Below are positions 1,217 through 23,121 of a DNA stretch of 32,000 nt, piece by piece. The position numbers and the translations under genes were made by a program. Below the pieces are notes generated by a model that was not told the origin of the DNA, did not search any database, and saw nothing but the letters and a program-made list of their open reading frames with translations. Origin of the DNA: Gemmata obscuriglobus (GTDB lineage Bacteria; Planctomycetota; Planctomycetia; Gemmatales; Gemmataceae); contig NZ_CP042911.1 in assembly GCF_008065095.1 (NCBI RefSeq), forward strand, positions 2,160,001 to 2,192,000, in the 5' to 3' direction. The first letter of the stretch is position 1. Every line of letters begins with the position of its first letter.

Positions 1217-3100
1217 TTACCACGTCCAGTCGACGCGGTACACGTGGTTCGCTTCCGGGTTCGGGATCTCCCAGTAAATCCAGCTCCCGTCGTCGGCCGC
1301 GAACGTGAGCAGCGGTCCGGTGTACGGGCGCGGCTCCTCGCGCGTTTTGGGGTCGTCTGCTCGAGTCGGTGCGTACCGGAACTGGTGGGTCTTGAACGGC
1401 CGGTCCTCGGGGAACAGGATCAACATGGAGGTCTTGACCGAGCCCTCGTAGCCGACCGCTCCGAACCACTGCTCGTCGGGCGCTTGGAGCGAGTTCCAGT
1501 AGGTGCTCGAATAGCGGAGCGTGAACTCGTGCCCCACCGGGATGTCGGACACGTCGAACACCAGTTGCCGCACTTTCATTGCCTGTTGCCCCACGAACCC
1601 GGGGCGCTCCGCACTGAACGCGCGGGCCTTGTCGGCGTTCGGCCGGCCGGCTCGGTTGACGACGTCCCGTCCGGTGGTGCGGGTCTCGACGCGCAACTCG
1701 TTCACGGGGGCGATCTTCTTCACCTCGCGCCGGGTGAAGTACACGATCGAGGATTCCGCGGTCGAGCCCGGAGGGACCGCGCGCCACCCGCGCATGTCCA
1801 CGATCCGCTCGTCCCGGCGCACCTCGAAGTGCGACGCGTCCGCGTCGGGCAGGTTCGGTAGTACGGTGACGGGGTGCGGCGAGGTCCGGTCCGGGAGCGG
1901 TTCCACGAGTCGGAGGGCATCGACCTGCTTGGCGACTTCGTCGCGCACGAGTGCGACGGCCGCGTCGTCCTTCTTGCGGAACAGCCACACCGGCGACGGT
2001 GCGAGCCACGCGACGGCGAGCAACCCGAGGAGAACGCCCGCCGCCAGGGCGGGGCGCCAGCGGCGGCGGAACTGCTTGCAGGCCGTGTACCACAGCCCGG
2101 TGCGCGGACCAAGGAGCGGCTCCCCGCCCAGGTACCGCCGCAGGTCGGCGGCGAGGTCCGCGGCGCTCGCGTACCGCTCCGCCGGGTCCTTCGCGAGGCA
2201 CTTGCGGCAGATCAGGTCGAGTTCGCGGGGGACGCCCGGGGCGCGCCGCGCCGCCGGCACCGGTTCGTCGCTAACCACCTGACGGATCACGGACCACGCA
2301 TCCGAACCGGTGAACGGCACCGAACCGGTGAGGCACTCGTACAGGATGACGCCGAGCGCGTAGACGTCCGCCGCCGGGCCGATGCTCTTCGTCTCGCCCC
2401 GCGCCTGCTCCGGCGACATGTACGCGGGGGTGCCCATCACCGACCCGGTTCGGGTGAGTTCGGCGCCGTCGCGCTTCGCGAGCCCGAAGTCCATCACCTT
2501 CGGTTCGCCCCACGGTTCGGCGGCGGGACCCGGGGCGTCGAGCAGGACGTTGTGGGGCTTCAGGTCGCGGTGGACGATGCCGCGGTCGTGGGCGGCCTGC
2601 ACCCCGAGCGCGACCTTCGCGACCAACTCGGCCGCGGCACAGGGGCGCATTTTCCCGGACGCGCGGAGCCGCTGCGCGAGGCTCCCGCCCTCCAGGCACT
2701 CCATCGCGAGGTACGGGCGCCCGTCGGCCTCACCGCTGTCGAACACCTGGATCACGTTGGGGTGGCGGATCGCGGCCACCGCTTGCGCTTCCCCGAGGAA
2801 CCGCGCGACCTCGCGCGCGTCCGCGTGCGCGCCGGCCAGCACCATCTTGAGCGCCACCACCCGGTTCAGTTTCACCTGCCGGGCCTTGTACACGACGCCC
2901 ATGCCGCCGCGCCCGAGTTCGCCGACGATCTCGTACCCGGGAGGGCCGGACGCCGTGAGCGTGAGCGCGACCCGCTGCGCCTGTTCCGCCGTCTGTGCGA
3001 GCGTCTCGCTGTGCGCGAGAGACGCTTCGCTCGGGTGCGTGTCCCCTTCGGTTGTCAAATCGGGGGGCGACGGCGATGCGGTTCGTGTTTCATCATTCAT
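1217..3100 (-). CDS. Hanks-type Ser/Thr protein kinase with one TM helix and a ~260-aa C-terminal extracytoplasmic domain of unknown type
   Basis: The kinase motifs are present: Gly-loop GELGRGGMGVVYKA, VALK lysine, catalytic loop HRDLKPHNVLL, DFGLAK, and activation segment GTPAYMSPEQ. A hydrophobic segment ALAAGVLLGLLAVAWLAPSPVWLF follows. The C-terminal domain (..VYFTRREVKKIAPVNELRVETRTTG..FTLRYSSTYWNSLQ..) has no motif I recognise. The ORF opens with GTG at 3121; the first ATG is at 3100, so the start is uncertain by 7 codons. Confidence 0.9.
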   Translation of the reverse strand: MNDETRTASPSPPDLTTEGDTHPSEASLAHSETLAQTAEQAQRVALTLTASGPPGYEIVGELGRGGMGVVYKARQVKLNRVVALKMVLAGAHADAREVARFLGEAQAVAAIRHPNVIQVFDSGEADGRPYLAMECLEGGSLAQRLRASGKMRPCAAAELVAKVALGVQAAHDRGIVHRDLKPHNVLLDAPGPAAEPWGEPKVMDFGLAKRDGAELTRTGSVMGTPAYMSPEQARGETKSIGPAADVYALGVILYECLTGSVPFTGSDAWSVIRQVVSDEPVPAARRAPGVPRELDLICRKCLAKDPAERYASAADLAADLRRYLGGEPLLGPRTGLWYTACKQFRRRWRPALAAGVLLGLLAVAWLAPSPVWLFRKKDDAAVALVRDEVAKQVDALRLVEPLPDRTSPHPVTVLPNLPDADASHFEVRRDERIVDMRGWRAVPPGSTAESSIVYFTRREVKKIAPVNELRVETRTTGRDVVNRAGRPNADKARAFSAERPGFVGQQAMKVRQLVFDVSDIPVGHEFTLRYSSTYWNSLQAPDEQWFGAVGYEGSVKTSMLILFPEDRPFKTHQFRYAPTRADDPKTREEPRPYTGPLLTFAADDGSWIYWEIPNPEANHVYRVDWTW

Positions 3101-3174
3101 GTGGCGCCCAGAAAGAAGCACGCGCGTAGTTTAGCACCGAACGGGGCGGGGCGCCTGCTGATGCGCCAGAAGCG

Positions 3175-3262: not shown

Positions 3263-6022
3263 TTAGTCGTGGGTTTCGAGCCGGTGCAGCACTTCGGTAA
3301 GCAGTCCCGGGCCGCTCATCCGGTACGCGGCTTCGTGCGGGCACGCTTGAACGCAGAACGGCTCGTTGCCGCCGCACAGGTCGCAGTTGACGGCGCGCCG
3401 GGCGGCGATCTTGAGCGGGTCGCCGCTGGGGTGCTGGGTCGCGGCCGGGTTCGGGGTGCCGCGGGCGGTCATGTGGATCGCACCGTAGGGGCAGTTGCGC
3501 TCGCACAGCCCGCACCCGATGCAGTGGTTCTCGATCACCACCTCCAGGTGCGCGCCGCGGCGGTGGATCGCGTCCACCGGGCACCCCTCCATGCAGTACG
3601 GCTTCTGGCACGAGCGGCACGAGGTGGCGACCAGGAAGTCGCCGAACCGCAGCCCCTCGCGGAGCAGCCGGGCGTTACCGTCGTGCGAGTCGGCGCACGC
3701 CTTGGTACACTCGTCGCACCGGGTGCAGCTCTTCAGGTCGAGCACCAGCAGCCGCTGCCCCTGGTAGAGCCCCTGGCGGACGTAGTCGCGGAGGACCGCC
3801 GGGGGCGGGTCCTTGGCGACGCCCGGGACCGCGCGGCGCGGCCCCTCTTCCATGTGCTCTTTGAGCTTCGGGAACCGCTCGCACAGCCGGCGGAACACCG
3901 GGCCGGGGACCCGCACCACCTCGACCGGGTCCAGCGCCGCGACGGTCGCGGTGCGCACCCCGGGGCGGTCCGACAGCAGCCCGCGCTCGCCGAAGCTGTC
4001 GCCGGCGGACAGCAGCCGCAGCACCTGCTCGGCCCCGCCGGCCGTGGTGAACACCCGCACGGTGCCCAGCCGGATGATGTAGAACGCGGCCGCGACGTCC
4101 CCTTCGGACACGATCGCCTCGCCCGCCTCGACCCGGGCGAACGTGACCCCCTCGCTCAGCAGGAACGTCGCCGCCTGCTCCCGCTCCATCTTGTCGAGCG
4201 CCTCGAACACGCGGCTGTTCTGCACGCCGGTCTGGATCGCGCGCAGGGTGTACATCTCCTGGATGTCCTCGCGGGCCGAGGCCGACCGCTGCATCATGTC
4301 GAGCATGTTGCGGGTGATCTCGTACACCACCACCGGGCCGCGCTTCTTCGGGTTCCGCGCGACGGTGGGCCATCCGTTCTCGTCGTACCCCAGGGTGAGT
4401 TCGGGGCTGTCGTCCTCGGCGACCGCGACCACGGTCGCGGTGCGCGGGCGCTGGGTGAAACAGGTCATCTCGCCGAGCACCAGCTCGTCCCCGGACGACA
4501 CCTTCACCAGCGCCCCGTAGTCGCCCGCCGCGCGCTTCTTTTTCTTCTTCGCCCCGCCGAACAGGCTGCCGAGCAGCCCGAGCCGCACCTCGGGCTCCGG
4601 CCCGCGGACGTAGATCTCGAACGTGCCGGTCCCTTGCAGGAGGAACGCGGTGCTGCCGTACTCGCCCTCGTCGCACAGCACCTTGCGGTCGCCCGGGCGG
4701 ATCTCCCACCGGCGCACGGCCCCCTCGTTCCACTTGAGGTACGAGTACGGGATGGAGCGGAACGGGAACACGACCCGCGCCCCGCGGGTGGGGCTCTCGT
4801 ACAGGAGCCACACGTCCCGCATCTGGTCGGCGGTCAGGAAGTCGGACCCCTCCGGGAACGGGGTGTTCGGGTTCACCGGCACCTGCTCGGGCGAGTCGTC
4901 GCCCCACGCCCGGGGCCGCACGCGGCGGCGCAGCGACAGCGCGCCGGTGGGGCAACTGTTCATGCACTCGCCGCACTGCACGCAGGTGCTGTCCCGCATG
5001 ACGCTGTCGAGGTCGAAGCTGATGCGGGTGCCGTACCCCTTGCCGGTGTGGCCGATCACCTTGAACGGCTTCACCTCGGAGCACGCCCGCACGCACCGGT
5101 CGCACACGATGCACCGGTCGTGGTCCACCACCACCGTGCGCGACGAGTAGGGGTAGTCCTTGTCGATCTGCGCGTTCCACTCCTCCCAGGCGTCGCGCAG
5201 CTCCGGCGCCTCTTCCGTCAGCTCGTTTTCGCGGAGGGTGGGGAGGAGGGGCAGGTTGACGCGCCGGGACTTGGGGATCGCCTCTTCGGCCGCGTTGCGG
5301 CTCGGCAGGGCGGCGGGCTTGCGCAGGCTCGGCCGCGCCTCCAGCACCTCCAGCGACCGGGCCACCGTGGACAGCTCGTCCTCGTACCGCTTGGTCTCGG
5401 TGAGCGGCTCGTGGAGGCAGTCGGCGACGAGGAACTCGGCGAGCAGCTTGACCGACTGGTTGACGCTGTCTGCCGCGTCCCGGATGGTCTTGGCGGTCTT
5501 TTCGTCGCCCGTGGCCTCGTCGCGCTTCTGCGGGTTGTACCCGTCGAGCCCGGCGCGGGTGGTGACCACCATATTGGTTTCGACGCGGTGCTGGCACGCG
5601 GGCACCAGCTTGCGCCCGGGGGTCAGCTTCCCGCGCTTCATGCTCGAGATGTGGACCGAGCACATGCGGCACACCGCGACCGGGGCGACGTGCCGCTGGT
5701 GGCACAGCACCGGGATGCGCTCCTTCAGCTCCTCTTCCGTCCACGCCCCGGCGGCGACGAGGGCCGCGGCGGCGTCGTAGATGGTCGTGGTGCGCGGGAT
5801 CTCCTTGCCGTCGGCGTCGCGGACGACGTTCCCCTGCGCGTCGGTCTTGGGCACCGCGCGGGGCACCTCGACCGGGAACCCGTCGATGACGACGGTGACG
5901 AGGTCCCGGAACCGGTCGCGGGTCTCTTTCTCGCGCCGCACGAGCACGTCGTTGTCGTCGCGGGCGAAGAGGGACTCTTCTTCGCGGCCCAGGAAGATGT
6001 CGGGATCGGCGATGTCAGGCAT
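3263..6022 (-). CDS. Multidomain Fe-S protein: NuoG/HndD-type N-terminus ([2Fe-2S] + 2x[4Fe-4S]), two cyclic-nucleotide-binding domains, DmsB/HybA-type 4x[4Fe-4S] C-terminus
   Basis: The protein is 919 aa. The [2Fe-2S] pattern is C107-x10-C118-x2-C121-x21-C143. The two-cluster ferredoxin patterns are C304xxC307xxC310xxxC314 and C347xxC350xxC353xxxC357P. The cNMP phosphate-binding cassettes are LGEMTCFTQRPRTATV (aa 516-531) and FGERGLLSDRPGVRTATV (aa 677-694). The C-terminal clusters are C766xxCxxCxxxC776, C802xxCx4CxxxC814P, C834xxCxxCxxxC844P and C880xxCx6CxxxC894P. There is no molybdopterin or H-cluster domain and no TM helix. Confidence 0.9.
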   Translation of the reverse strand: MPDIADPDIFLGREEESLFARDDNDVLVRREKETRDRFRDLVTVVIDGFPVEVPRAVPKTDAQGNVVRDADGKEIPRTTTIYDAAAALVAAGAWTEEELKERIPVLCHQRHVAPVAVCRMCSVHISSMKRGKLTPGRKLVPACQHRVETNMVVTTRAGLDGYNPQKRDEATGDEKTAKTIRDAADSVNQSVKLLAEFLVADCLHEPLTETKRYEDELSTVARSLEVLEARPSLRKPAALPSRNAAEEAIPKSRRVNLPLLPTLRENELTEEAPELRDAWEEWNAQIDKDYPYSSRTVVVDHDRCIVCDRCVRACSEVKPFKVIGHTGKGYGTRISFDLDSVMRDSTCVQCGECMNSCPTGALSLRRRVRPRAWGDDSPEQVPVNPNTPFPEGSDFLTADQMRDVWLLYESPTRGARVVFPFRSIPYSYLKWNEGAVRRWEIRPGDRKVLCDEGEYGSTAFLLQGTGTFEIYVRGPEPEVRLGLLGSLFGGAKKKKKRAAGDYGALVKVSSGDELVLGEMTCFTQRPRTATVVAVAEDDSPELTLGYDENGWPTVARNPKKRGPVVVYEITRNMLDMMQRSASAREDIQEMYTLRAIQTGVQNSRVFEALDKMEREQAATFLLSEGVTFARVEAGEAIVSEGDVAAAFYIIRLGTVRVFTTAGGAEQVLRLLSAGDSFGERGLLSDRPGVRTATVAALDPVEVVRVPGPVFRRLCERFPKLKEHMEEGPRRAVPGVAKDPPPAVLRDYVRQGLYQGQRLLVLDLKSCTRCDECTKACADSHDGNARLLREGLRFGDFLVATSCRSCQKPYCMEGCPVDAIHRRGAHLEVVIENHCIGCGLCERNCPYGAIHMTARGTPNPAATQHPSGDPLKIAARRAVNCDLCGGNEPFCVQACPHEAAYRMSGPGLLTEVLHRLETHD

Positions 6023-6121: not shown

Positions 6122-8182
6122 CTATTCGGCGGGCTTCCGCCCGTTCGCTTTGGGTGCGTCATCGACGAAGTACTCGAGCGCCGTCGCCAGCGGGATCGGG
6201 GCCACGTACCCCAGGCCGCAGATCGAGGTGAGCTGGAGCGTCTTCGTGATCTCTTTCACGTCCTTCTTGATCGCGGCCAGGTCGTCGGCCGGCAGCCGGC
6301 CCGCGCGGCGGCTCTTCAGCAGCCCCTCGCCGATCTGCACCAGCTTCTGCGACCCGAGCCGGCACGGCACGCACTTCCCGCACGACTCGTTTCGGTAGAA
6401 CTGCGTGTAGTTCACCGCCTGGTCGAGCACGTCCACGTCGCCCGCGTACACTGTGATGGCGGCGCCGAGCATCGCTTCCACGGGGAGCCGCAGCGCGCCG
6501 TTCAGGTGCCGGAAAAAGTTCAGGTCAAGGGGGATCTTGAGCACGTCGAGTTCGGTCGCGCCGAGCGGCAGGTGCGTGTTGAGGAACCACTCCATGAAGT
6601 CCGCGTCTTGCGCCGAGCGGTCGCGGATGCGGGCGACCGCGTCCGCCCGCTTCTTGGCGTCGAACTTGGGATCGACCGGCAGCTTCGCCGGGACCAGCCC
6701 GCCGGACGGGCCGGACGCGGCCACCGCCCGCAGCGGGCCGGTGATCCCGCCGCAATACTTGTCCCCGTTGAACAGCTCGCCGAGGGTGAGGCCGATCGCG
6801 ACCTCGTACACCCCGGGGCGCGCCACGTCGCCGCTGACCGAGAACAGCCGCCGCCCGCCGAACTTGATCTTCGGGTCGGTCGCCAGCCGCCACCCGCCCA
6901 TCTCGTACTTGTCGCCGCCGAACAGGATGATCCCCGGCGCCCAGGCCAGCGTCTCGACGTTGTTCACCACCGTCGGCTTGTCGCGGAACCCGTTGGCCGA
7001 CAGCTCCGGCGGCCGGTTCCGCGGTTGCCCGCGGCGGTCCTCCATTGCCTCGATCAGGGCCGACTGCTCGCCGCAAATGTACCCCCCCGGGCTCTCGAAC
7101 ACCTCGACCGGGAAGTTGCGTCCCGACCCGAAGATGTTCGGGCCGCACGCGCCGAGCTCTTGCGCGCGTTTGATCTCTTCTTTTAGGGCGTGGATCTGCT
7201 CGAAGTACTCGTGGCGGACGTAGATGTGCCCGCTGGTGGCGCCGGTCATGAGCCCGGCGAGGATGACCCCCTCCACCACGAGGTGCGGCATCCGCAGGAG
7301 GATCTCGCGGTCCTTGAAGGTGCCGGGTTCGCTCTCGTCGCCGTTGCAGACGATGTACTTCTCGTTGCCCGGCTGTTGCCACACGTCGAGCCACTTCTGG
7401 TACGCCGGCGCGCCGGCCCCGCCCATCCCGAGCAGGTTCGCCGTCTTGAGCTCCCACAGCAGCGGGTGGAACCGCTGGACGTAGGTCTCAAGGTCCTTGC
7501 CGCCCAGCTCGCGCGGGGGCGGCACGAGCGGCCGGATGAGCCGAGCCAGGTAGTCCGTGAACCGCTTGACGGCGCGGTAGTCGCGGGGCCAGCCCTGGCG
7601 CCCGTAGATGTCCAGCGACCAGCCCGCCGTGCGCGGCGCCGGGTGCTCCGGGTCGGCGATCACGCCCTTGGGTATCGCGTAACCGCGGTTGGTGTTGGTG
7701 TGCGGCTCGTAAGTCGCGTCGGTGTCCGGCTCGGGCGGGTCGCGGTCCGCGGCGAGGTCCCGCAGCACCCCTTCGAGGAACTCGCCGTCGCGCCCGGCGT
7801 AGACCCAGGCGTGAACGTGTTCGGGCATGGGCCGCTTCTCGACCCACACCGCCGGGGCGCGGTCGCACCGGCCCAGGCACGAAACGCCCTCGACGCACAC
7901 ACTCTTGCCGGTCGCCTCGGACAATTCGGCCGCGAGCACCGGCAGCCCGGTGCGCTCGTCCAGCAGCGCCGCGGCCCCGCGGTGGTGGCAGGTCAGGTCG
8001 CGGCACACCCGCATCTCGATCTCGGGCGGGTTGGTGCGTTCGAGCTTGAACGCGGGGAAAAAGCTGCTGACCTCCTCAATGCGGTACAGCGGCACGTTGA
8101 TCTCGTGCGCGAGCGCCCGCAGCTCCTTATCGGGGAGGAAGCCGAACCGGTTTTGGATGTCGCGGAGCCGCTGAACGATCAT
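6122..8182 (-). CDS. NuoE-NuoF fusion protein (NADH-oxidising flavoprotein module: thioredoxin-like [2Fe-2S] + FMN/NADH site + [4Fe-4S])
   Basis: The protein is 686 aa. The NuoE part begins MIVQRLRDIQNRFGFLPDKELRALAHEINVPLYRIEEVSSFFPAF and carries CRDLTC...CLGRC, a Cx4C...Cx3C pattern. The NuoF part has GMGGAGAPAYQKW (FMN loop), YIVCNGDESEPGTFKDREIL, GGYICGEQSALIEAME, VVNNVETLA, an SLBB-like RRLFSVSGDVARPGVYEV, and ESCGKCVPCRLG...SICGLG ([4Fe-4S]). The start is ATG at 8182. Confidence 0.92.
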   Translation of the reverse strand: MIVQRLRDIQNRFGFLPDKELRALAHEINVPLYRIEEVSSFFPAFKLERTNPPEIEMRVCRDLTCHHRGAAALLDERTGLPVLAAELSEATGKSVCVEGVSCLGRCDRAPAVWVEKRPMPEHVHAWVYAGRDGEFLEGVLRDLAADRDPPEPDTDATYEPHTNTNRGYAIPKGVIADPEHPAPRTAGWSLDIYGRQGWPRDYRAVKRFTDYLARLIRPLVPPPRELGGKDLETYVQRFHPLLWELKTANLLGMGGAGAPAYQKWLDVWQQPGNEKYIVCNGDESEPGTFKDREILLRMPHLVVEGVILAGLMTGATSGHIYVRHEYFEQIHALKEEIKRAQELGACGPNIFGSGRNFPVEVFESPGGYICGEQSALIEAMEDRRGQPRNRPPELSANGFRDKPTVVNNVETLAWAPGIILFGGDKYEMGGWRLATDPKIKFGGRRLFSVSGDVARPGVYEVAIGLTLGELFNGDKYCGGITGPLRAVAASGPSGGLVPAKLPVDPKFDAKKRADAVARIRDRSAQDADFMEWFLNTHLPLGATELDVLKIPLDLNFFRHLNGALRLPVEAMLGAAITVYAGDVDVLDQAVNYTQFYRNESCGKCVPCRLGSQKLVQIGEGLLKSRRAGRLPADDLAAIKKDVKEITKTLQLTSICGLGYVAPIPLATALEYFVDDAPKANGRKPAE

Positions 8183-8303: not shown

Positions 8304-9941
8304 TCATTCTTGCTTGGTGCTGCCCGTGAGCCACTGCTTGAGCGACAGCGGCGTTCCGCTTTCGCGGGCGGCGGCCCCACGCCCCTGGAGCGGGTTGTCG
8401 CCGTTGTGGTACCGGTGGCAGTCGGTGCAGTTGTGCCGGGCGCCGCCGCCCGCCACGTCGGTGCCGTCGGGCAGCTTGACGACAGTGCCGACCGGCGCGT
8501 GACAGGCCCGGCACGTGTTCAGCCCGAGGATCTGGACCGGCTCCGGTTTGTTCGCCTCGACCGGCGACACGTATGCGGCTGCGGTGCCGGGGTGGCACGT
8601 CGCGCAGGTGGCCCCGCGGTGTGATGCGTGGTTGAACGTCGCGTGCCGGAGCCAGACGGTGCGGTCCGGTACCGCCGCGATTTTCGTCCTCGCGCCGCCA
8701 GCGCCTGCGGTCACCGTGTGGCACTTCGCGCAGCTCCCGCGGCTGCCGAACAGGTTAGCCTCCGCGTCCGCGGTGAGGCGTTCGGCGGTGTGGCCCAGCG
8801 TCGGCGGGGCGAGCGGTTGTTGCGGGTCCAGTTTCCCGCCCAGTTCCGGCGGGCGGGCGAGTGCGGGGTGGCCGCCGTCGCTCAGCCCCTTCAGGTAGCC
8901 CGCCTTGAGTTCGGCCGCGAGGTCCGCGGGCTGCTTGCGGTGCGCCAGCTCGAACCGCGGCACGGCGAACTTCTTGCCCCCTGACTCGGCGACGGCCTCG
9001 GGGGCGGCTAGCGGGTGGCACGACCGGCAGTGCGCCTCGAAGTTGACCGGCAGGAAGTACGCACCTTCCGCGCGCGGCGGGAACAGCGCGTCCGCCGGGG
9101 CGCCCTTCGTCAACGTCGCCTTCACCTTGTCCAGTTCCGGGGAGCCGGCGCCGGCGTCGAGCGCGTGGCACGACGCGCACGCGAGCTGAACCTTCGCGCT
9201 GTCGGGTTGGCCGGGGGCGAAGCGGGCGACGGCCGCGGCACCGCCCAGCTCACGGAGCCGGGCGACGGTCATCGCTTCCTTCCCGTCCGCGCTGTACGCC
9301 TGCCCCGGACTCATGTGGACCGCGTGGCTGAACGTGAGTGTCCGCGGGCTCTTGGTGATGTCAAGCGACCGAAACTCCGGGTGGTCGGTCACGAAGTTGG
9401 TCACCTTGTTCGCGTAAGGCGGCTCGCCGCGGGCCGCGGTGAGCGACCGGTCCGCATCGTGGTACCGGTTGAGTTCGGCGTGGCACCAGTTGCAGTCCTT
9501 GTCGGCAAGCCGGACCAGCGAGTTGAGCCGCCCGTTATGGTCGTGGTGGCAGTTCGAGCACCGGTCGTGGAACGCCTGCGCCTCCTTATTGGAGGAGGCG
9601 TGGTGCGGCGGCCCCGCGTGGCACTTCTCGCAGGTGAGATCGTGCCACCGGTCCCGCGCCCGGAAGGCGTCGAGCGGATTCAGACTCACCTTATGCGCCT
9701 TGTGGCACGCCTCGCAGTTGTTGTCGAACGCCGCGTGGACGTCGGCGAGTTGGCCGTGCGAGTGGGCGTACTGGACCCGCTGGGCCGGTTTGGCCACATC
9801 GACCGCCGCCCAGACGCCGGCCCCGATGAGGGCAATGGCGGTGAGGGCGCGGCGGGCGCGGCGGAACACGTCGGGGCTGCGGAAGTACCCGCGCCGCCCG
9901 ATGTACCGGTCCGACAGGTCGCGACTAGGGGAGCGGGGCAT
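8304..9941 (-). CDS. Membrane-anchored decahaem c-type cytochrome
   Basis: The protein is 545 aa with an N-terminal hydrophobic anchor ALTAIALIGAGVWAAV. It has ten CXXCH motifs: CEACH, CEKCH, CSNCH, CNWCH, CASCH, CRSCH, CAKCH, CATCH, CRACH, CTDCH. It also has c3/c7-like distal-His motifs (FSHAVH, FNHASH). Confidence 0.92.
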   Translation of the reverse strand: MPRSPSRDLSDRYIGRRGYFRSPDVFRRARRALTAIALIGAGVWAAVDVAKPAQRVQYAHSHGQLADVHAAFDNNCEACHKAHKVSLNPLDAFRARDRWHDLTCEKCHAGPPHHASSNKEAQAFHDRCSNCHHDHNGRLNSLVRLADKDCNWCHAELNRYHDADRSLTAARGEPPYANKVTNFVTDHPEFRSLDITKSPRTLTFSHAVHMSPGQAYSADGKEAMTVARLRELGGAAAVARFAPGQPDSAKVQLACASCHALDAGAGSPELDKVKATLTKGAPADALFPPRAEGAYFLPVNFEAHCRSCHPLAAPEAVAESGGKKFAVPRFELAHRKQPADLAAELKAGYLKGLSDGGHPALARPPELGGKLDPQQPLAPPTLGHTAERLTADAEANLFGSRGSCAKCHTVTAGAGGARTKIAAVPDRTVWLRHATFNHASHRGATCATCHPGTAAAYVSPVEANKPEPVQILGLNTCRACHAPVGTVVKLPDGTDVAGGGARHNCTDCHRYHNGDNPLQGRGAAARESGTPLSLKQWLTGSTKQE

Positions 9942-10060: not shown

Positions 10061-10942
10061 TTACCAGTACTTCAGCGCCCGGACCGCGTGGAGGACCATG
10101 AGCGAGAACATGGCCCACGACAGCGGGATGTGAACCAGGAGCCAGCCGTGCAGCCACGCGTGCAGGGTCCGCTGGTCGTCCCAGCGGCGGCGCAGGTCGG
10201 CGAGCCCCTGGAGCTTGTCGAGCGCGCCGCGGGCGTCCGGCGGGACCGCCTCCCGGAGCCGGGCGAACCGGCGCTCGGCCTCGGCGCGGGCGGTCAGGGG
10301 CGACCGCGACTGCCGCCCTTGTTCCAGATAAGGGAGCAGCACCTCGTCGCGGAACGCCTCGAGTTCGCCGGCCAGCGGTCCGCTGATGACCGGCTCGTCG
10401 GATTCGGACTCCGGGGGCACCGTGGTGAGCGCGGTGATGAGCTGCCGGGCCTCGTCGGCCTGGTACTCGCCGAGCCGGTCGATTTGCGACGCGATCGACT
10501 CGCCCGGGATGTCTGCGAGCATCTTTTGGGGGAGCCACTGCTGCATCACCAGGCCCCAAACGCCGCTCGCGATGACCGCAAGGAACAGCGCCATCGTGGC
10601 CGCCGGGAGCGGGCCGCCGAACCCGAACCCGCCGTGGATCAGAATCACCGGCAGGCACAGGAGCCCGAGCCAGATGTGCAACCGCATCCAGGTGCGGGTG
10701 CGGCCGAGCCGGTGCCCGCGCAGCATTTTGCGGAACACCAGGGCCATTTCGAACGCGATGATGATCCCGCCCGCGACCCCGCACAGCACCCCGAACCCGC
10801 TGCTGGGCTGCGGGGGCCAGTCCCACAGCCCGAGGAGCCCGCCGACCCAGGCGACGGCCGTGACGGCAACCGTGATCCCGACGGTGGCACCGATGATGGT
10901 GAACACCCGGCGCGGAACGGTCTTGGTCTTACCGAGAAGCAC
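10061..10942 (-). CDS. Integral membrane protein, putative di-haem b-type transmembrane electron carrier (cytochrome b / ferric-reductase-domain-like)
   Basis: The protein is 293 aa with about five hydrophobic helices. H89-x13-H103 lies in RLHIWLGLLCLPVILIH, and H271-x13-H285 lies in VHIPLSWAMFSLMVLH. A ~120-aa charged helical insert (aa ~137-255) sits between TM4 and TM5. The start is GTG at 10942, and there is no nearby in-frame ATG. Family assignment is by pattern only. Confidence 0.7.
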   Translation of the reverse strand: MLLGKTKTVPRRVFTIIGATVGITVAVTAVAWVGGLLGLWDWPPQPSSGFGVLCGVAGGIIIAFEMALVFRKMLRGHRLGRTRTWMRLHIWLGLLCLPVILIHGGFGFGGPLPAATMALFLAVIASGVWGLVMQQWLPQKMLADIPGESIASQIDRLGEYQADEARQLITALTTVPPESESDEPVISGPLAGELEAFRDEVLLPYLEQGRQSRSPLTARAEAERRFARLREAVPPDARGALDKLQGLADLRRRWDDQRTLHAWLHGWLLVHIPLSWAMFSLMVLHAVRALKYW

Positions 10943-11206
10943 TCGCGGCTCCGATCATGACGCCGTATTTCGTGTTACGGTGAGGATAGTACCCCTCGTG
11001 CGCGGGGCGGTCAACTATTTCGAACAGGAACTTCGGCCCCGGTGACACCGGGGCGTCACCCGCGGCCGGCGCGCGACCTTGTGAGGCGCATTCGTGATGG
11101 ACGGCGCTTGCCGTCCGGCCCGGAAATGTTGAACATGGGGGACGCACCGGCGGGCGCGTCCCGTGGCTCGCGTTTTGAACACCCGCTCAACTATTATCGG
11201 CTGACA
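10943..11206. promoter_or_regulatory. Divergent intergenic control region between the two arms of the redox island
   Basis: This is 264 bp between divergent starts at 10942 (-) and 11207 (+). It contains a 19-bp perfect palindrome gccccggtgacaccggggc at 11036-11054. That palindrome overlaps an alternative stem ggtgac/gtcacc (11041-11046 / 11055-11060). There is a hairpin ggacggc-gctt-gccgtcc at 11099-11116 and a hairpin gggacgc-N10-gcgtccc at 11139-11162. The AT-rich 9-mer TCAACTATT occurs twice (11011-11019 and 11187-11195), each time next to a TT(C/T)GAACA motif. I could not place promoter hexamers confidently. Confidence 0.5.
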
Positions 11207-12664
11207 ATGAATCTCAGCGCGCGTACAGTTCTCGTCACACTGGTGGCGGCCGCGGTCGGCCTCGCGGTCGCGGTCGGCGCGGCCCGGGCCGTCAAACCCG
11301 ACACCGTGACGGTTCCGAAGTACGAGCCGGTCCACCCGACTTCCGACGCGCCAACCGAGCGCCGGCCGGTCGGCGCGGTCGGGTGCATGGCCGCCGCGTG
11401 TCACGGCGCGCCCGCCGGTGAACTGCTCAACGGCCGGAGCGGCCCCGACACATGGGCCGCTTCGGGGAGCTGCTGGGCCGCAGCCGATCCGCACACGGCG
11501 GCCTACAGCCTGCTGACCGACCGCCCGCGGCGTAGCGTGGTGGTGACCGCGGCCCGGATCATGGCGAAGTACCGACCGGGGGTGAAGGCGACCGACGACG
11601 CCCGGTGCCTGGCGTGTCACACCAACCCGACGCTCGCGGAACTCCCCGCGACGACTGAAGTGGTTGCGCTCCGCGAGCAGGGGGTGAGCTGTGAGGCGTG
11701 CCACGGTAACGCGGGACAGTGGATTCAACCGCACACCGGGTGGACCGGCGACCGGGCGCAGGTGTACCGCGAGACCGGATTAAAACCGCTGTACGACATG
11801 GGCGAACGGGCGGTGACCTGCGCTGGGTGCCACGTCGGGGCGCCGGCCGACGGCTCCAACCCGGTGCGCGACATGAACCACGACATGATCGCGGCCGGGC
11901 ACCCGCGGCTGAACTTCGACTTCGCCGAGTACCAGCGCCGGCTCCCGAAACACTGGCACGAGAAGGAACGAACGAGCGGCGCGGCCAAACTGAACGAGTC
12001 GCAGGTGTGGTACGTCGGGCGGTTGGCCCACGCGGAGACCGCGTGCCGGCTCCTGGGGAGCCGGGCGCAGCGGACCGAGGCGAACGACGCCCGGACGGTC
12101 TGGCCCGAGTTCGCCGAGTTCAACTGTGCCGCTTGCCACCACAACTTGCGCGCTCCCGAGGAGGACGGCGGGCACTGGCGCAAGAGCGCGGAATACCTCG
12201 ACGGCCGCCCGATCGGTTCGACCCCGTGGCAAACGATCTGGCCCGTGACGCACGCGCCAGGACTGCCGCAGCCGCGCCGGGCGACCTCTGAAGTCGCGGC
12301 GCTGGTGCGGCTGATGGAGGGGGAGACCGGGCAGACGTGGCCCGACGGCCGGCCCAAGGTGCTCCGCTTCGCGAAGGCCCCGGATGCGAAGGGGCTGGCT
12401 CTCGCCACCGCCGATGCGCTCGCGGCGGCCCGGCGCGAGGCGGCGGCGGGTACGAAGGGGCCGCCGCCCGGGCTGTTCCCGGCGGGCGCGCCGCTTGTGC
12501 CCGAGTGGGACAGCGCGGAACAACTGTTCTTCGGGCTCGCGGCGCGGGAATACGCCCGGGGCGCGCCCGCCGCCGGGACCGTGCAGAAGTACCGGACCGG
12601 CGTGGACGCGTTTCGCGCCCGAGACTGGCTGAAGGTCAAGGACGTGTTCACCGGGCTGCGCTAG
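11207..12664 (+). CDS. Secreted pentahaem c-type cytochrome, paralogue 1 (cytochrome c554-family-like signature)
   Basis: The track ORF is 11042..12664. I prefer the ATG at 11207, which gives a signal-like N-terminus MNLSARTVLVTLVAAAVGLAVAVGAARA. The haem sites are CMAAACH (CX4CH, nt 11384-11404), CLACH, GVSCEACHGN, CAGCH and CAACHH. It shares DPHxxAYSLL and DMNHDMIAAGHPRL with the two downstream paralogues. Confidence 0.88.
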   Translation: MNLSARTVLVTLVAAAVGLAVAVGAARAVKPDTVTVPKYEPVHPTSDAPTERRPVGAVGCMAAACHGAPAGELLNGRSGPDTWAASGSCWAAADPHTAAYSLLTDRPRRSVVVTAARIMAKYRPGVKATDDARCLACHTNPTLAELPATTEVVALREQGVSCEACHGNAGQWIQPHTGWTGDRAQVYRETGLKPLYDMGERAVTCAGCHVGAPADGSNPVRDMNHDMIAAGHPRLNFDFAEYQRRLPKHWHEKERTSGAAKLNESQVWYVGRLAHAETACRLLGSRAQRTEANDARTVWPEFAEFNCAACHHNLRAPEEDGGHWRKSAEYLDGRPIGSTPWQTIWPVTHAPGLPQPRRATSEVAALVRLMEGETGQTWPDGRPKVLRFAKAPDAKGLALATADALAAARREAAAGTKGPPPGLFPAGAPLVPEWDSAEQLFFGLAAREYARGAPAAGTVQKYRTGVDAFRARDWLKVKDVFTGLR

Positions 12665-12695
12665 GAGCGCGGCCCGCGAAGGATTCCCCGCACGG

Positions 12696-14240
12696 ATGCG
12701 ACGGAAGCGAACCGCGAGTGTGATCGTGCGCGCCGTTCCCCTTGTTGCGATGGCCCTCGCCGCTGGCGTCGTCGCCGGTGGCCTGAACGCGGTTCATTCC
12801 TCTCATCCCCCGACCCGCTCCCCTCAACTCGCGTCGGCGGTGGGTGCGGCGGGCGACAAGCCTTACGGGGTCGGGGCGGCGCCGTTCGCGCACCGGCCGA
12901 GCACCTCGTGCGCCGCGTCCGCCTGCCACGGCGGCGGCGCGATCGGCAAGGCGGGCAGCGAACACTCGACCTGGACCCGCGAGGCCGCGCCGTCCGCGAC
13001 CGGCGACCCGCACGCGAAGGCGTACAGCGTTCTGTTCAACCCGGTCTCGGTGCGGATGGGACAGTTGCTCGGGTTCGACGGCAAAAAGGAGCCGCTGCCC
13101 CACGAGAACACCAGGTGCCTCGTGTGCCACTCCGTGGCCGAGGGCGCGGGCGGCGGAGACGATCGCGAGCAGTTCCTGGCGGAGGGCGTGGGGTGCGGCG
13201 GGTGCCACGGGCCGGCGGACAAGTGGATCGCCGAGCACACGCTCCCGTCGTGGAAGGCCCGTTCTAACGAGTCCAAGTGGAAAGACTTCGGGTTCGTGCC
13301 CACGAAGAACCTCGTGGCGCGGACGCTGAACTGCGCGAGCTGTCACGTCGGCGACGGCACGCGCGACATGAACCACGACTTCATTGCGGCCGGGCACCCC
13401 AGACTGGCGTTCGAGCCGGCCCGCTTCCACGCCCAGCCCGACTACCGCAAGCACTGGACGGAGAAGGCCCCGGCCCGCGATTTCGAGGTTCGCGTGTGGG
13501 TGGTCGGTCAGGCCGCGACCCTTCGCGCGGCTGTGAATCTGCTTTACGAGCGGGCGCGGAAGGCCGAGACGCCGAACGTCTCGCACCCGTGGCCGGAGTT
13601 CAGCGGCTACAGTTGCTTCTCGTGCCATCAGACGATTGGGGGCGATGCGCTGCGGGGCGAACGGAGCGCAACCGCCCGCCCCGTCGGCAACCCGCCCTGG
13701 GAGGTGTGGGCGAACGCCGGCGCGGGTGTCGCGGCCGAAACTTGCGGCACGGCGTTTCCCGGGGTAAGCTCGCCACAGTTGTTGAAAGTGCAAGAGCTTC
13801 GCAAACTGATGGGGGCGAAGCGGGAGCCGAACCCGGCCGAGGTCGCGCGACTGGCGCTCGCCGCCCGGGACGAACTCGACCAGTGGCTGGCGCAGCTCCA
13901 GGCCGCCGAAGATCGGGAGCTTGTGCCCGTCCCCGAAGGGACGCCGCGCCGGATCGCGCACCTGCTCACCTCGCGGGCGCTGAACGGGGACAAGCTCGCG
14001 GACCACGACTGGGACGCGCTGGCGTCGACGTACCTGGGCGCCGCGTCGATGTGGACCGCGACCGGCGGTCGGGGCGGGCGCGAGGCGCTCTGGGGTGAGC
14101 CCCTGGCGCGGGTGTACGGCGCCCTGAAGTTCCCCCCCGGCTCGAACGGGCCGGTCAAGTTCGGCAAGCCGGAACTGGACACCATCTACAAGCAGCTCGA
14201 ACTGCTGCGCGACACGACGGGCACACCGGAGGGGAAGTGA
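12696..14240 (+). CDS. Secreted pentahaem c-type cytochrome, paralogue 2
   Basis: The protein is 514 aa with a signal/anchor MRRKRTASVIVRAVPLVAMALAAGVVAG. The haem sites are CAASACH (CX4CH, nt 12909-12929), CLVCH, GVGCGGCHGP, CASCH and CFSCH. Shared motifs are DPHAKAYSVL, DMNHDFIAAGHPRL and WPEFSGYSC. A GAAGGA sits ~12 nt upstream of the ATG. The gap to paralogue 1 is 31 bp. Confidence 0.9.
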   Translation: MRRKRTASVIVRAVPLVAMALAAGVVAGGLNAVHSSHPPTRSPQLASAVGAAGDKPYGVGAAPFAHRPSTSCAASACHGGGAIGKAGSEHSTWTREAAPSATGDPHAKAYSVLFNPVSVRMGQLLGFDGKKEPLPHENTRCLVCHSVAEGAGGGDDREQFLAEGVGCGGCHGPADKWIAEHTLPSWKARSNESKWKDFGFVPTKNLVARTLNCASCHVGDGTRDMNHDFIAAGHPRLAFEPARFHAQPDYRKHWTEKAPARDFEVRVWVVGQAATLRAAVNLLYERARKAETPNVSHPWPEFSGYSCFSCHQTIGGDALRGERSATARPVGNPPWEVWANAGAGVAAETCGTAFPGVSSPQLLKVQELRKLMGAKREPNPAEVARLALAARDELDQWLAQLQAAEDRELVPVPEGTPRRIAHLLTSRALNGDKLADHDWDALASTYLGAASMWTATGGRGGREALWGEPLARVYGALKFPPGSNGPVKFGKPELDTIYKQLELLRDTTGTPEGK

Positions 14241-16054
14241 TGACGACGGGACACGCGGGGCGGACCGCCCGCGCCGCCGGACTTGCGGCGGTGTTCGCGG
14301 GCCTCGCGCTCGGGCTGGCGGTCGCCGTCAGCCCGCCGCGGGCCGCTGTCGCCGCGCAGGATGACAAGAAGGAGCCGCCGCGCCCCACCGAGGCCCAGAA
14401 GAAGGACCACGCCCTGCTCGGCGCGTCCCAGTGCAAGAAGTGCCACTCGGTCGCCGACCGGAAGGCGGCGGGCCTTGAGGAGTACGAGGAGACGAAGGCC
14501 TACGACTTCATCCGGCTCTCGGAGAACATCGTGTGGAGCGCGCACGACCTGCACTCCACCGCCTACCGGAGCCTGCTGACCGAAGAGACCGCAAAGGGGT
14601 CCAAGTTCACCCCCAACAAGACGGCCGAGCGGATGGAGCAGAAGCTCCGCAAATACAAGGGCGACAGCTACCGGGTGGCGACCGACACCGCGTGCCTCGC
14701 GTGCCACGCGAGCGTGCGCCAGCCGGTCGACAAGGTCCCACCGGACGCGTGGAAGGCCGGCAAGCTGACCGCGGGGAACCTCGCGGGCGGCTCGTTCACC
14801 AGCCTCGAAGGGGTGGGCTGCGAGATGTGCCACGGCCACGGGACGATGTATCAGACGGTCCACCAGGCGTCGCGCGAGGGCGACACCAACCCCGGGGCGC
14901 TGAAGGTGGTCGACTGGCGGCTGTTCCCGACGGCGGTGAAGACGGAGTGGGGCCTTAACAACCTTCGCGACCCGGCCGTCGCGGCCCAGACGTGCGCGTC
15001 GTGCCACATCGGCAACAAGGCCGAGGGGCGGTTCGTGACCCACGACATGTTCGCGGCCGGGCACCCGCCGCTGCCGCCGCTGGACCTGATGGCCTACACC
15101 CGCGAGCAGCCGCGGCACTGGGGGTTCGCGGGCGACATGCCGTTCATCACCAAGATGGCCGAGAACAAGGCGACCGCGGACAAGGCGTTCGCACTGTACC
15201 GCTACCGCGCGGGCGAGTCCCTCGTGGCCCGGCGGTTCGCGGAATCGGCCCTCGCGGTGCTGGGCGCCACCGCCGGCCTCGGCGCGCAGCTCGCCGACGA
15301 CGCGAAGGCCAAGGGCGACGGGCTCGACTTCTCGGCGTTCGACTGCTACTCGTGCCACCACAACCTGAAGTACCCGAGCGAGCGGCAGGATCGCGGCTAC
15401 GTCGGGCGCCCGGGGCGGCCGCTGTACCGTCCGGCGGCGTTCGCGCTCGCCCGGCTCGTGCTCGACCACGCCGGCGGGATGACGGGCGGTGAGTCCCTCA
15501 AGGGGGCCGCGAACGAACTCGACAAGCTGGAACTGGAACTGGCCGACGCGTTCACCGTGAAGACCTACGGCGACGCCGACAAGGTGAAGGCCGCGACCGC
15601 GAAACTCGCGGCCTGGAGCGAGGGCGTCCGAAAGAAACTCGAGCCGGTGCGGTACACGCCCGAGGAGGTCGCCAAGCTGTTCACCAAGCTGACCGCGGTC
15701 GCGAGCGACGCGAAGAAGCCGGTCGGTGACCCGGAGGTCGCCCAACTGTACCTGTGGGCGGCCGAGACGCTGTACCTGGACCTCCAGCCCAAGGAACTGA
15801 CGGATAAGGCGGTCGAGCCAAAGGCCCTCAAGGCGATGCGCGACGGGATCGCGGCGTCGGTCGTGACCCGGCTGCGCCCGGACACCGACTTCTACTATGA
15901 ACAGCGCTTCGTCGAGGGGAAATCGAGTCCGATCGAGAAACCGACGACCAACGACTCGGTCGAGCGCCGGCTCGAAAAGCGGATGGACATCTTCAACGCC
16001 TTCCGCGGCGATCCGTTCCGCATGGCGGTCGAGGGGCTGAAGCTCCCGAAATAG
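14240..16054 (+). CDS. Secreted pentahaem c-type cytochrome, paralogue 3 (longer C-terminal helical domain)
   Basis: The protein is ~604 aa. The start is GTG at 14237 or ATG at 14240, inside GTGATGA, which overlaps the TGA of paralogue 2 (translational coupling). The haem sites are CKKCH, CLACH, GVGCEMCHGH, CASCH and CYSCHH. Shared motifs are DLHSTAYRSLL and THDMFAAGHPPL. Confidence 0.9.
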   Translation: MTTGHAGRTARAAGLAAVFAGLALGLAVAVSPPRAAVAAQDDKKEPPRPTEAQKKDHALLGASQCKKCHSVADRKAAGLEEYEETKAYDFIRLSENIVWSAHDLHSTAYRSLLTEETAKGSKFTPNKTAERMEQKLRKYKGDSYRVATDTACLACHASVRQPVDKVPPDAWKAGKLTAGNLAGGSFTSLEGVGCEMCHGHGTMYQTVHQASREGDTNPGALKVVDWRLFPTAVKTEWGLNNLRDPAVAAQTCASCHIGNKAEGRFVTHDMFAAGHPPLPPLDLMAYTREQPRHWGFAGDMPFITKMAENKATADKAFALYRYRAGESLVARRFAESALAVLGATAGLGAQLADDAKAKGDGLDFSAFDCYSCHHNLKYPSERQDRGYVGRPGRPLYRPAAFALARLVLDHAGGMTGGESLKGAANELDKLELELADAFTVKTYGDADKVKAATAKLAAWSEGVRKKLEPVRYTPEEVAKLFTKLTAVASDAKKPVGDPEVAQLYLWAAETLYLDLQPKELTDKAVEPKALKAMRDGIAASVVTRLRPDTDFYYEQRFVEGKSSPIEKPTTNDSVERRLEKRMDIFNAFRGDPFRMAVEGLKLPK

Positions 16055-17458: not shown

Positions 17459-17553
17459 TTGTGAGCACACTTCGACCGCGGGACAGGTCTGGGCGAACCG
17501 GGCGCGAGCGGCCCGTCAAAACATTCGTTACCGGGGCGTAACCGTTTTGTGGG

Positions 17554-22890: not shown

Positions 22891-23121
22891 TACTTGGCTT
22901 CTCGTCGCGCCGTACCAACCCGATGCGCACTGACTGAGCTTCTGCTCTGATACCCCCTTGCGGTAGAGTTCGAGAGCATTCGTGGGTTGGCGCCAGGGGT
23001 GGTACGCTCTTGTCGGGAGGCGTGTCGCACGTCCGTCACGATCCGGTCTGCCATCGTTTGGCCGTTGCAACTCCCGCTGGAATCGATCACCCGTTTGGGA
23101 GCACGTTGGAAGGTGCGAGTG

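Follow-up and report, generated by a model that had tools for sequence, protein, structure and literature searches.

Tandem cyclic-nucleotide-binding domains in an iron–sulphur protein of a putative NAD(H)-to-cytochrome conduit in Planctomycetota

The system closest to the one described here is the ptdABCDEFG operon, described in silico and reported in marine Alpha- and Gammaproteobacteria, Nitrospirales and Planctomycetes (10.1101/2023.11.21.568154). It encodes an iron–sulphur (Fe-S) protein with a cyclic-nucleotide-binding (CNB) domain (PtdE), a ferric-reductase-like membrane protein (PtdF) and a periplasmic decahaem cytochrome (PtdG), together with tetra/pentahaem cytochromes, a porin (PtdB) and an FAD/NAD(P) oxidoreductase (PtdC); in the words of its authors the function 'remains completely unknown' (10.1101/2023.11.21.568154). 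The 32 000-nucleotide stretch of the Gemmata obscuriglobus genome analysed here (the window, G+C ~70%) carries a cluster of similar content: a CNB-Fe-S protein of 919 amino acids (aa), a four-His membrane protein and decahaem and tetra/pentahaem cytochromes. The C-terminal two-thirds of the 919-aa protein fit the description of PtdE, from which we infer homology, and PtdE-like stand-alone CNB-ferredoxins exist among its relatives. The window differs from the ptd operon in that its CNB-ferredoxin, with two CNB domains and four clusters, is joined to a HoxU-like module, in that the NAD(H) input is a NuoE-NuoF fusion and not an FAD/NAD(P) oxidoreductase, and in that no porin gene is recognized (among the neighbours scanned in the window there is neither a porin-like nor an FAD-oxidoreductase gene). 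No experimental characterization of the CNB-Fe-S family was found in the literature, where the ptd preprint is the only relevant text; a preprint on extracellular electron transfer in peat and a paper on freshwater Verrucomicrobia, considered as descriptions of the system, concern other systems.

The best explanation of the locus, to which we give a probability of about 0.5, is that the 919-aa protein is the cytoplasmic Fe-S subunit of a planctomycete NAD(H)-to-cytochrome conduit that is switched by the ligand of its CNB domains. The two parts of this reading differ in strength. That the protein is the Fe-S subunit of such a conduit is quite probable; that the conduit is controlled by a cyclic nucleotide comes close to an even chance without quite reaching it. 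The protein is laid out as follows.

3263..6022 (-), the whole 919-aa Fe-S / CNB / Fe-S protein, from the open reading frame (ORF) and its translation, Pfam and NCBIfam
5543..5905 (-), aa 40-160, [2Fe-2S] domain with a Fer2_4 match at aa 85-156 and C107/C118/C121/C143 invariant
5156..5542 (-), aa 161-289, helical region in place of the His-ligated [4Fe-4S] domain, from the model and the family lengths
4907..5155 (-), aa 290-372, 2x[4Fe-4S] ferredoxin domain, from Fer4_Nqo3 (aa 297-365) and Fer4_9
4217..4840 (-), aa 395-602, CNB1, a barrel with two insertions followed by the alpha-B/C helices, from trimmed Pfam, hhalign, model and Foldseek
3842..4216 (-), aa 603-727, CNB2, a canonical CNB domain, from Pfam PF00027, PDB sequence matches and model
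3752..3841 (-), aa 728-757, junction from the CNB2 C-helix to the first C-terminal cluster, from conservation
3308..3751 (-), aa 758-905, 4x[4Fe-4S] polyferredoxin module of the HycB/HydN/DmsB type, from Fer4_11, Fer4_7 and Fer4_21

Seven Fe-S clusters are predicted, one [2Fe-2S] and six [4Fe-4S], and all predicted ligands (4 + 8 + 16 Cys) are invariant in the conservation alignments, which hold 58-116 homologues and reach down to ~45% identity. The protein shares 99% identity with one from Gemmata whose annotation reads 'cyclic nucleotide-binding domain-containing protein', and the closest database locus, that of Gemmata algarum JC673 (L007; Lnnn stands for genome loci of relatives and Pnnnn for relative proteins), shares 99% protein identity across the whole locus. 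An AlphaFold2 model built on 58 homologues has a mean predicted local distance difference test score (pLDDT) of 77.5 and a predicted template modelling score (pTM) of 0.73, a value that for a multidomain chain of 919 aa suggests a defined, not floppy, arrangement. A Pfam scan of the protein gives no DNA-binding, kinase, channel or cyclase output domain, which leaves the Fe-S modules or a partner as the only possible output.

An earlier note on this DNA, made from the sequence without database searches, had placed two cyclic-nucleotide-binding barrels at aa ~395-715, and the region (3878..4840 on the minus strand, exactly aa 395-715 of the protein) is confirmed as two CNB domains arranged as in PKA-R and PKG. 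CNB2 is recognized directly: Pfam cNMP_binding (PF00027) matches aa 630-716 with 86 bits (E 1.5e-24), and aa 603-727 match PKG and PKA-R in a sequence search of the PDB. CNB1 is not reported by Pfam in the intact protein. Taken alone (aa 383-601) it scores 18.8 bits, and with its two insertions removed 28.2 bits (E 1.9e-6), the Pfam cut-off for the family being 27.5 bits. A profile of CNB1 made from 116 homologues aligns with that of CNB2 across the barrel and the cassette (hhalign E 1.7e-5, probability 78%), and in phmmer searches PKG chains are matched by two stretches of the protein. In the model both barrels have pLDDT mostly of 85-94 and show the canonical order of A-helix, eight strands, cassette helix and B/C helices. 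The top 50 Foldseek matches of the region in the PDB are all tandem CNB-A/B domains of PKA-R/PKG, with ~300 aligned columns, probability 1.0 and E down to 3e-14. As in PKA-R and PKG, consecutive barrels are joined by B/C helices and their cassettes carry Glu and Arg. However, the protein has neither an inhibitor sequence nor a kinase partner, its CNB1 has two insertions, its output is an Fe-S module, and root-mean-square deviations of 9-25 Å among the top 50 Foldseek matches point to another inter-domain orientation.

The two insertions of CNB1 differ in character.

4514..4606 (-), aa 473-503, insertion 1, containing GGAKKKKKRAAG, a variable basic loop
4334..4420 (-), aa 535-563, insertion 2, a beta-hairpin between strands 7 and 8, from the model

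Insertion 1, with its KKKKK run, had been singled out by the earlier note and is real: it is a poorly conserved loop, 15-127 aa long across the family, with low model confidence (pLDDT 53-58). Insertion 2 is 23-36 aa long in 85/116 relatives and 2-8 aa in the rest, and its strands (540-546 and 552-561) have pLDDT >90.

Both phosphate-binding cassettes keep the Gly-Glu...Arg-Thr-Ala residues, as had been read from the sequence, and agree with the G-E...R-[ST]-A pattern of the CNB family.

4430..4477 (-), aa 516-531, cassette 1, LGEMTCFTQRPRTATV, with the canonical 8-residue spacing from GE to R
3941..3994 (-), aa 677-694, cassette 2, FGERGLLSDRPGVRTATV, two residues longer than canonical

Invariant residues are G517, E518 and R527 in cassette 1 and G678 and R690 in cassette 2; at least 90% of the 58-116 homologues keep E679. 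Neither CNB domain has many invariant positions, and the cassette residues belong to them. Among close relatives the G-E...R triad is found in 118/120 sequences for CNB1 and 111/120 for CNB2, and among representatives of clusters at 50% identity in 103/113 and 107/135 respectively. To judge from these alignments, the cyclic-nucleotide cassette residues are under selection in the family.

From CNB2 the chain passes through the 30-residue junction into the polyferredoxin module. The junction is conserved at the level of the cluster motifs (Q750, G751, L752, Q754 and Q756 stand out), and over aa 741-763 conservation equals that of those motifs, which makes the junction a candidate coupling element. 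The DmsB-like C-terminus with four [4Fe-4S] clusters named in the earlier note is found as described: the Fer4_11 match is accompanied by sixteen invariant Cys (C766/769/772/776, C802/805/810/814, C834/837/840/844 and C880/883/890/894), by NCBIfam assignments to DmsB, FDH3 beta and HydN, and by a match of aa 756-905 to HycB3 of the hydrogen-dependent CO2 reductase (E 8.6e-15), the best solved relative in the PDB sequence search. The four Cys groups, for a chain of four [4Fe-4S] clusters, are those of HycB, HydN, HycB3-4 and DmsB/NarH, but the module has an N-terminal tandem CNB extension that is not described in those proteins, and no catalytic partner is encoded. A precedent for the docking proposed below is NarH, which binds the dihaem b subunit NarI at its cytoplasmic face.

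The N-terminal module belongs, as had been recognized, with NuoG and HndD-like proteins. Its [2Fe-2S] motif (C-x10-C-x2-C-xn-C, in the Fer2_4 domain) is followed by two [4Fe-4S] clusters (C304/307/310/314 and C347/350/353/357, eight invariant Cys, in the Fer4_Nqo3 domain), and the gene lies beside NuoE/NuoF, as in HoxU, NuoG (Nqo3), HydA and FdhA systems. In the PDB sequence search aa 291-370 match NiFe hydrogenase subunit A, FdhA, HydA and Nqo3. The best NCBIfam models for the 2x[4Fe-4S] domain are those of [FeFe]-hydrogenase A6 (FeFe_hydrog_A6) and HoxU, all far below their cut-offs; HoxU reaches 1.2e-18, but with 67 bits against a cut-off of 333 bits. Unlike NuoG and HydA, the protein has no His-ligated [4Fe-4S] cluster and has a helical region instead. 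The motif of that cluster (H-x3-C-x2-C-x5-C), which the earlier note could not recognize in this sequence, is absent here, and even the relaxed pattern H-x3-C-x2-C-x4-6-C occurs in only 4/202 long relatives and is absent in 198. The helical region (helices 164-202, 216-223 and 265-289, pLDDT mostly >80) is 83-191 aa long across the family. It includes 'ADH', the family consensus and a remnant of the His-ligated motif, with the H kept in at least 90% of homologues; the present strain reads 'ADC' at aa 202 (5416-5418 on the minus strand) and has a His two residues later (LVADCLHEP). A further difference from HoxU, NuoG, HydA and FdhA systems is that no hydrogenase, molybdopterin or quinone module follows the N-terminal module.

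Ahead of the [2Fe-2S] domain lies a short element of another kind.

5909..5989 (-), aa 12-38, N-terminal motif GREEESLFARD.ND.LVRREKETR.RF, highly conserved, pLDDT 32-38

This stretch is among the best conserved of the family though modelled as disordered, and it may be a docking peptide, a short linear motif that would take up its fold on binding a partner, perhaps NuoEF.

Relatives are numerous. In a collection clustered at 90% identity 519 proteins are found at E<=1e-10, and 1216 representatives at 50% identity reach E<=1e-30. All listed full-length matches carry the Fe-S and cNMP_binding Pfam families of the window's protein, and those with a name are called 'cyclic nucleotide-binding domain-containing protein'. 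Relatives occur in 443 species-level genomes, of which the best 80 all belong to Planctomycetota (Gemmataceae, Isosphaeraceae, Pirellulaceae and Planctomycetaceae), with full-length matches down to 37% identity. The architecture is not rare: databases already annotate it, it is conserved in a whole phylum, and the literature has one passing mention of it. The database survey for the order Fe-S/cNMP/Fe-S that the note had called for finds it readily. When the 147 best representatives are scored with hidden Markov models (HMMs) for each module, ~70 have the full architecture and ~45 consist of CNB-CNB-4x[4Fe-4S] alone (500-550 aa). CNB-ferredoxins of lesser length are also present; two of these short forms (P0259 and P0262) lie on contigs of ~1.5 kb, which give no gene context.

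The genes also occur split and fused. L004 has three of them, for NuoEF (659 aa), a HoxU-like protein (395 aa) and a CNB-CNB-ferredoxin (530 aa), with an overlap of 4 nt between the second and the third; L006 has a NuoEF-HoxU-like fusion (1158 aa) followed by a separate CNB-CNB-ferredoxin; and in P0160 NuoEF, HoxU-like protein and CNB-CNB-ferredoxin are all in one protein of 1483 aa. These variants indicate that the three form one complex. Because both split and fused versions exist, the CNB pair is the native N-terminal part of the polyferredoxin subunit and not, as had been implied, an insertion in the place of a catalytic domain; in the 919-aa protein a HoxU-like subunit and a PtdE-like CNB-CNB-polyferredoxin subunit have been fused. 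The anatomy drawn from the sequence at first reading is otherwise correct, far beyond chance. Among the relatives, P0214 (3779 aa), P0232 (2659 aa) and P0233 (2651 aa) show 12-14 consecutive CNB-like repeats in profile searches.

In Verrucomicrobiota the CNB-CNB-polyferredoxin is very common, with 4841 proteins at E<=1e-20 for one verrucomicrobial query. Only two partners are encoded there, a homologue of the window's membrane protein and a ten-haem cytochrome c, and no HoxU or NuoEF partner is found in the verrucomicrobial cassette. The membrane proteins correspond closely (HMM E 1e-71 to 1e-77, His motifs identical). On the evidence of this form, any general mechanism must concern the docking of the polyferredoxin.

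The probable place of the protein in an electron-transfer path is given by its neighbours.

6122..8182 (-), NuoE-NuoF fusion of 686 aa, from 2Fe-2S_thioredx, Complex1_51K, SLBB and NADH_4Fe-4S and NCBIfam nuoF_fam (2.2e-86)
8304..9941 (-), decahaem cytochrome c of 545 aa, with ten CXXCH and matches to Cytochrome_C7 and c3_2
10061..10942 (-), five-helix membrane protein of 293 aa, from hydrophobic segments, with four invariant His
11042..16054 (+), three divergent multihaem cytochromes c with 4, 4 and 5 CXXCH and a signal or anchor

The NuoE-NuoF fusion, with its [2Fe-2S] cluster, FMN/NADH site and [4Fe-4S] cluster, is predicted to be the point of entry or exit of NAD(H). Synteny was counted in the best 80 genome loci. 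On this basis nuoEF lies directly upstream of the CNB-Fe-S gene in 57/62 loci with enough flank (4 more have a small insert or overlap), the membrane protein and the decahaem cytochrome are both found within 10 kb of it in 34/36, and the three divergent cytochromes are syntenic in most. The decahaem cytochrome has an N-terminal membrane anchor, with one hydrophobic segment at aa 32. The four minus-strand genes (for membrane protein, decahaem cytochrome, NuoEF and the 919-aa protein) are 99-141 bp apart, the row's only sigma-70-like site precedes the gene for the membrane protein, and inside the row there is no terminator-like site on the minus strand; spacing, single promoter-like site and lack of an internal terminator together fit one operon.

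The four His of the membrane protein form two pairs (H89/H103 and H271/H285), each 14 residues apart on one helix, and are invariant in 55 orthologues and in an alignment of 13 sequences that includes the verrucomicrobial homologue; H103 is kept in at least 90% of 41 database homologues. Two bis-His haems lying one above the other in a membrane are classically marked by such a spacing of 14 residues. The sequence thus describes a putative dihaem b-type transmembrane electron carrier and probably an undescribed family of such carriers common to Planctomycetota and Verrucomicrobiota. The model has pLDDT 87, Pfam gives only a weak match (DUF4405), and one orthologue has the UniRef name 'Ferric oxidoreductase domain-containing'. 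The protein also has a helical domain of ~115 aa, predicted to be cytoplasmic. Similar assemblies are Tmc/Hmc of sulphate reducers and the NOX/ferric reductases, where a redox module in the cytoplasm is followed by a membrane protein whose bis-His haems are stacked across the bilayer and then by an acceptor or multihaem cytochrome on the outside; among the latter, NOX5 and DUOX switch in response to a second messenger that they bind, Ca2+. The resemblance is one of function only. No sequence or fold relation to theirs was found for the membrane protein, and the cytoplasmic module of the window is NuoEF plus Fe-S, not HdrD-like or FAD/NADPH.

With the steps ordered by domain content and synteny, electrons would be exchanged with NAD(H) by the NuoE-NuoF flavoprotein, which would oxidize NADH or reduce NAD+, be accepted by the HoxU-like N-terminal module ([2Fe-2S] and two [4Fe-4S]) and be passed on by the HycB-like chain of four [4Fe-4S] clusters. 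They would go next to the membrane protein, with its two predicted bis-His haems, and from there to the anchored decahaem cytochrome and further multihaem cytochromes as acceptors in the periplasm. The CNB pair most likely binds cAMP or cGMP. The ligand would move the cassette and C-terminal helices, as in PKA-R, PKG and Epac, and through the conserved junction this movement would shift the four-cluster module relative to its HoxU-like donor or its membrane partner, so that the flow of electrons would be under a post-translational on/off switch. If electrons passed from NADH into the periplasm without energy conservation, reducing power and membrane potential would be drained, which would be a reason for tight gating. 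Direct gating is made plausible by the conserved cassettes, the lack of a DNA-binding domain, the conserved junction and an orthologous cyclase that adjoins the operon elsewhere. Stated in full, the proposal is a second-messenger-operated electron valve, in which a nucleotide at the tandem CNB domains opens or closes a transmembrane path from NADH to multihaem cytochromes. We put this forward tentatively, at somewhat less than even odds, and hold to the same degree that the valve would be conserved in Planctomycetota, with a minimal form in Verrucomicrobiota and in Ptd-carrying bacteria, and that a dedicated GAF-cyclase, possibly together with Ser/Thr-kinase or FHA signalling, would supply its input in some lineages.

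A neighbouring cyclase in other lineages lends independent support to a link with cyclic nucleotides. An orthologous GAF-class III cyclase of ~610 aa adjoins the operon in several planctomycete families, with 31-46% identity over most of its length.

L004:669-2504; L058:12439-14259; L059:12463-14130; L075:5353-7029; L069:2056-3942, the orthologous cyclase, operon-adjacent
L030:12846-13688; L031:9066-9899, the catalytic half of the cyclase, operon-adjacent

In L058 and L059 it stands immediately downstream of the gene for the CNB-Fe-S protein. GAF and class III catalytic domains are recognized in L058 and the catalytic domain only in L004, where a PDEase_II/metallo-beta-lactamase gene is also present (16933-17593).

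Several observations weigh against a switched conduit of this kind. No cyclase or phosphodiesterase gene is found in the window. Cyclase adjacency is seen in ~9/86 loci, a raw count near chance for cyclase-rich genomes, so that the cyclase argument rests on orthology across families. A profile search of PDB sequences gives no relative of the membrane protein (best E 0.2), and all its Foldseek matches are generic helical bundles (best E 0.09). Neither search demonstrates the fold of a ferric reductase or cytochrome b, and haem binding is predicted from the His spacing alone. The verrucomicrobial form has no N-terminal Fe-S partner, so the spacing of two modules in one chain cannot be the general mechanism. 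A minority of relatives (e.g. P0124, P0138, P0154, P0157, P0169 and P0175) have lost the cassette Glu or Arg but kept the domains, and many from Pirellulales and Planctomycetaceae (P0121-P0267) have an insertion in cassette 2, of ~15 aa and up to ~100 aa, between GEIALL and RTA, which is unusual for CNB domains and may remodel the ligand site. Degenerate cassettes and cassette 2 insertions together argue that the CNB domains also have a ligand-independent role.

These last observations are what most favours the strongest alternative, that the CNB pair is mainly a structural or docking scaffold, holding the polyferredoxin on NuoEF-HoxU or on the helical domain of the membrane protein, with no small-molecule control. 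The domains persist where the cassette Glu or Arg is lost, cassette 2 tolerates insertions of 15-100 aa, and the pTM of 0.73 suggests a rigid assembly. CNB1 moreover has family-specific invariant residues outside its cassette (L429, W431, N432, E433, G434 and R437) that look like an interface. In characterized CNB domains, however, the cassette Glu and Arg contact the ligand. A pure scaffold would have no need of such residues. Yet close relatives show little or no variation at the Glu and Arg positions of either cassette, and 79-91% of the distant representatives retain the triad. The recurrent adjacency of a cyclase likewise speaks for a ligand, and we regard a pure scaffold as unlikely, with perhaps one chance in five left to it by these arguments.

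Slightly behind it stands the possibility that the CNB domains are true sensors which report metabolic state through another ligand, such as cyclic di-GMP (c-di-GMP), another cyclic or linear nucleotide, a nucleoside or a redox metabolite. CNB folds do bind other ligands, and the top Foldseek matches include a nucleoside-binding trypanosome PKA-R. The residue after the cassette Arg of CNB1 varies (T, N, G, A, V or S), cassette 2 is longer than canonical, and a GGDEF response regulator adjoins the gene for the fully fused P0160. Against this, the trypanosome PKA-R regained cAMP binding in an E311A/T318R/V319A mutant (according to the entry title), whereas the Glu and Arg of the present protein are invariant, and the neighbouring signalling enzyme that recurs across families is the class III cyclase. 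Another ligand thus seems improbable, though hardly more so than the scaffold.

It is far less probable that signalling has the opposite direction, with the clusters' redox state setting the nucleotide affinity of the CNB domains so that the abundant protein buffers or reports nucleotide according to NADH/NAD+ or cytochrome redox state. The tight, conserved coupling of CNB2 to the first cluster would permit either direction, and no separate output domain is present. But synteny with a whole electron-transfer chain indicates that electron transfer is the controlled function, and we know of no precedent for redox-to-nucleotide signalling of this kind.

A degenerate hydrogenase or formate dehydrogenase large subunit, its catalytic domain replaced by the CNB domains, was rejected and retains very little probability. 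The N-terminal module is indeed closest to [FeFe]-hydrogenase group A6, HoxU and FdhA, but the NCBIfam hydrogenase models cover only aa 287-369, far under their cut-offs, and Pfam and NCBIfam give no match to an H-cluster or molybdopterin catalytic domain in the protein, nor any remnant of one. The split versions, in which the parts are separate, translationally coupled genes, the existence of other fusion orders and the abundance of stand-alone CNB-ferredoxins all tell against it. A CRP/FNR-type transcription factor with Fe-S sensing, as the automatic JGI name 'CRP-like cAMP-binding protein' would have it, can be dismissed, since Pfam finds no helix-turn-helix, a four-cluster ferredoxin takes the place of the DNA-binding domain and the structural matches are tandem PKA-R/PKG domains.

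Other features of the window and of its relatives bear less directly on the ligand-switched conduit.

1217..3121 (-), Ser/Thr protein kinase with a C-terminal extension (Pkinase 1.8e-51), 141 bp downstream of the CNB-Fe-S gene

The kinase was considered as a core component and rejected, being the adjacent downstream gene in only 8/57 loci, and is a possible accessory regulator. It stands directly 3' of the CNB-Fe-S gene in part of Gemmataceae and Isosphaeraceae (L002, L006, L009, L011, L017 and L021), and in L006 the kinase gene overlaps the CNB-ferredoxin gene by 4 nt. P0229, a distant relative, has two FHA domains N-terminal to the CNB-ferredoxin; with the kinase adjacency this hints at phospho-Thr signalling that converges on the system. 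In one Gemmataceae lineage a toxin–antitoxin-like two-gene cassette (97 aa and 139 aa, with a faint PIN match) lies between nuoEF and the CNB-Fe-S gene (L001:9258-9970, L034 and L020). A 95-nt tRNA-Arg(CCG) called by ARAGORN at 6644-6738 (-) is most likely a false positive, as it lies inside the conserved nuoEF coding sequence and has no Rfam match; Rfam gives no match anywhere in the window. At 22987-24039 (+) lies an ORF of 350 aa, in a stretch of lower G+C (64%); by eye it seems to be a genuine gene whose two halves resemble each other.

Among non-signalling proteins, the closest parallel for an embedded CNB domain is found in the family 2B encapsulins, whose internal cNMP-binding domain is proposed to control access or activity directly and not through transcription (PMC8346489). 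Regulation is only proposed there as well, and the systems differ in that the HK97-fold shell is unrelated and carries a single CNB domain on a disordered linker.

To our knowledge every characterized bacterial route from cAMP or cGMP to respiration runs via transcription factors such as CRP. If the reading proposed here is true, it would be the first example of post-translational second-messenger control of electron transfer itself, and a natural ligand-gated electron switch, relevant to bioelectrochemistry and synthetic biology. The system is widespread, with relatives in 443 species-level genomes, thousands of verrucomicrobial CNB-polyferredoxins and a similarly described protein in the ptd operon of marine bacteria, which is transcribed but unexplained. 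An NADH overflow route, extracellular or periplasmic electron transfer and reverse electron flow are candidate roles, and its function would explain a large set of 'planctomycete cytochromes'.

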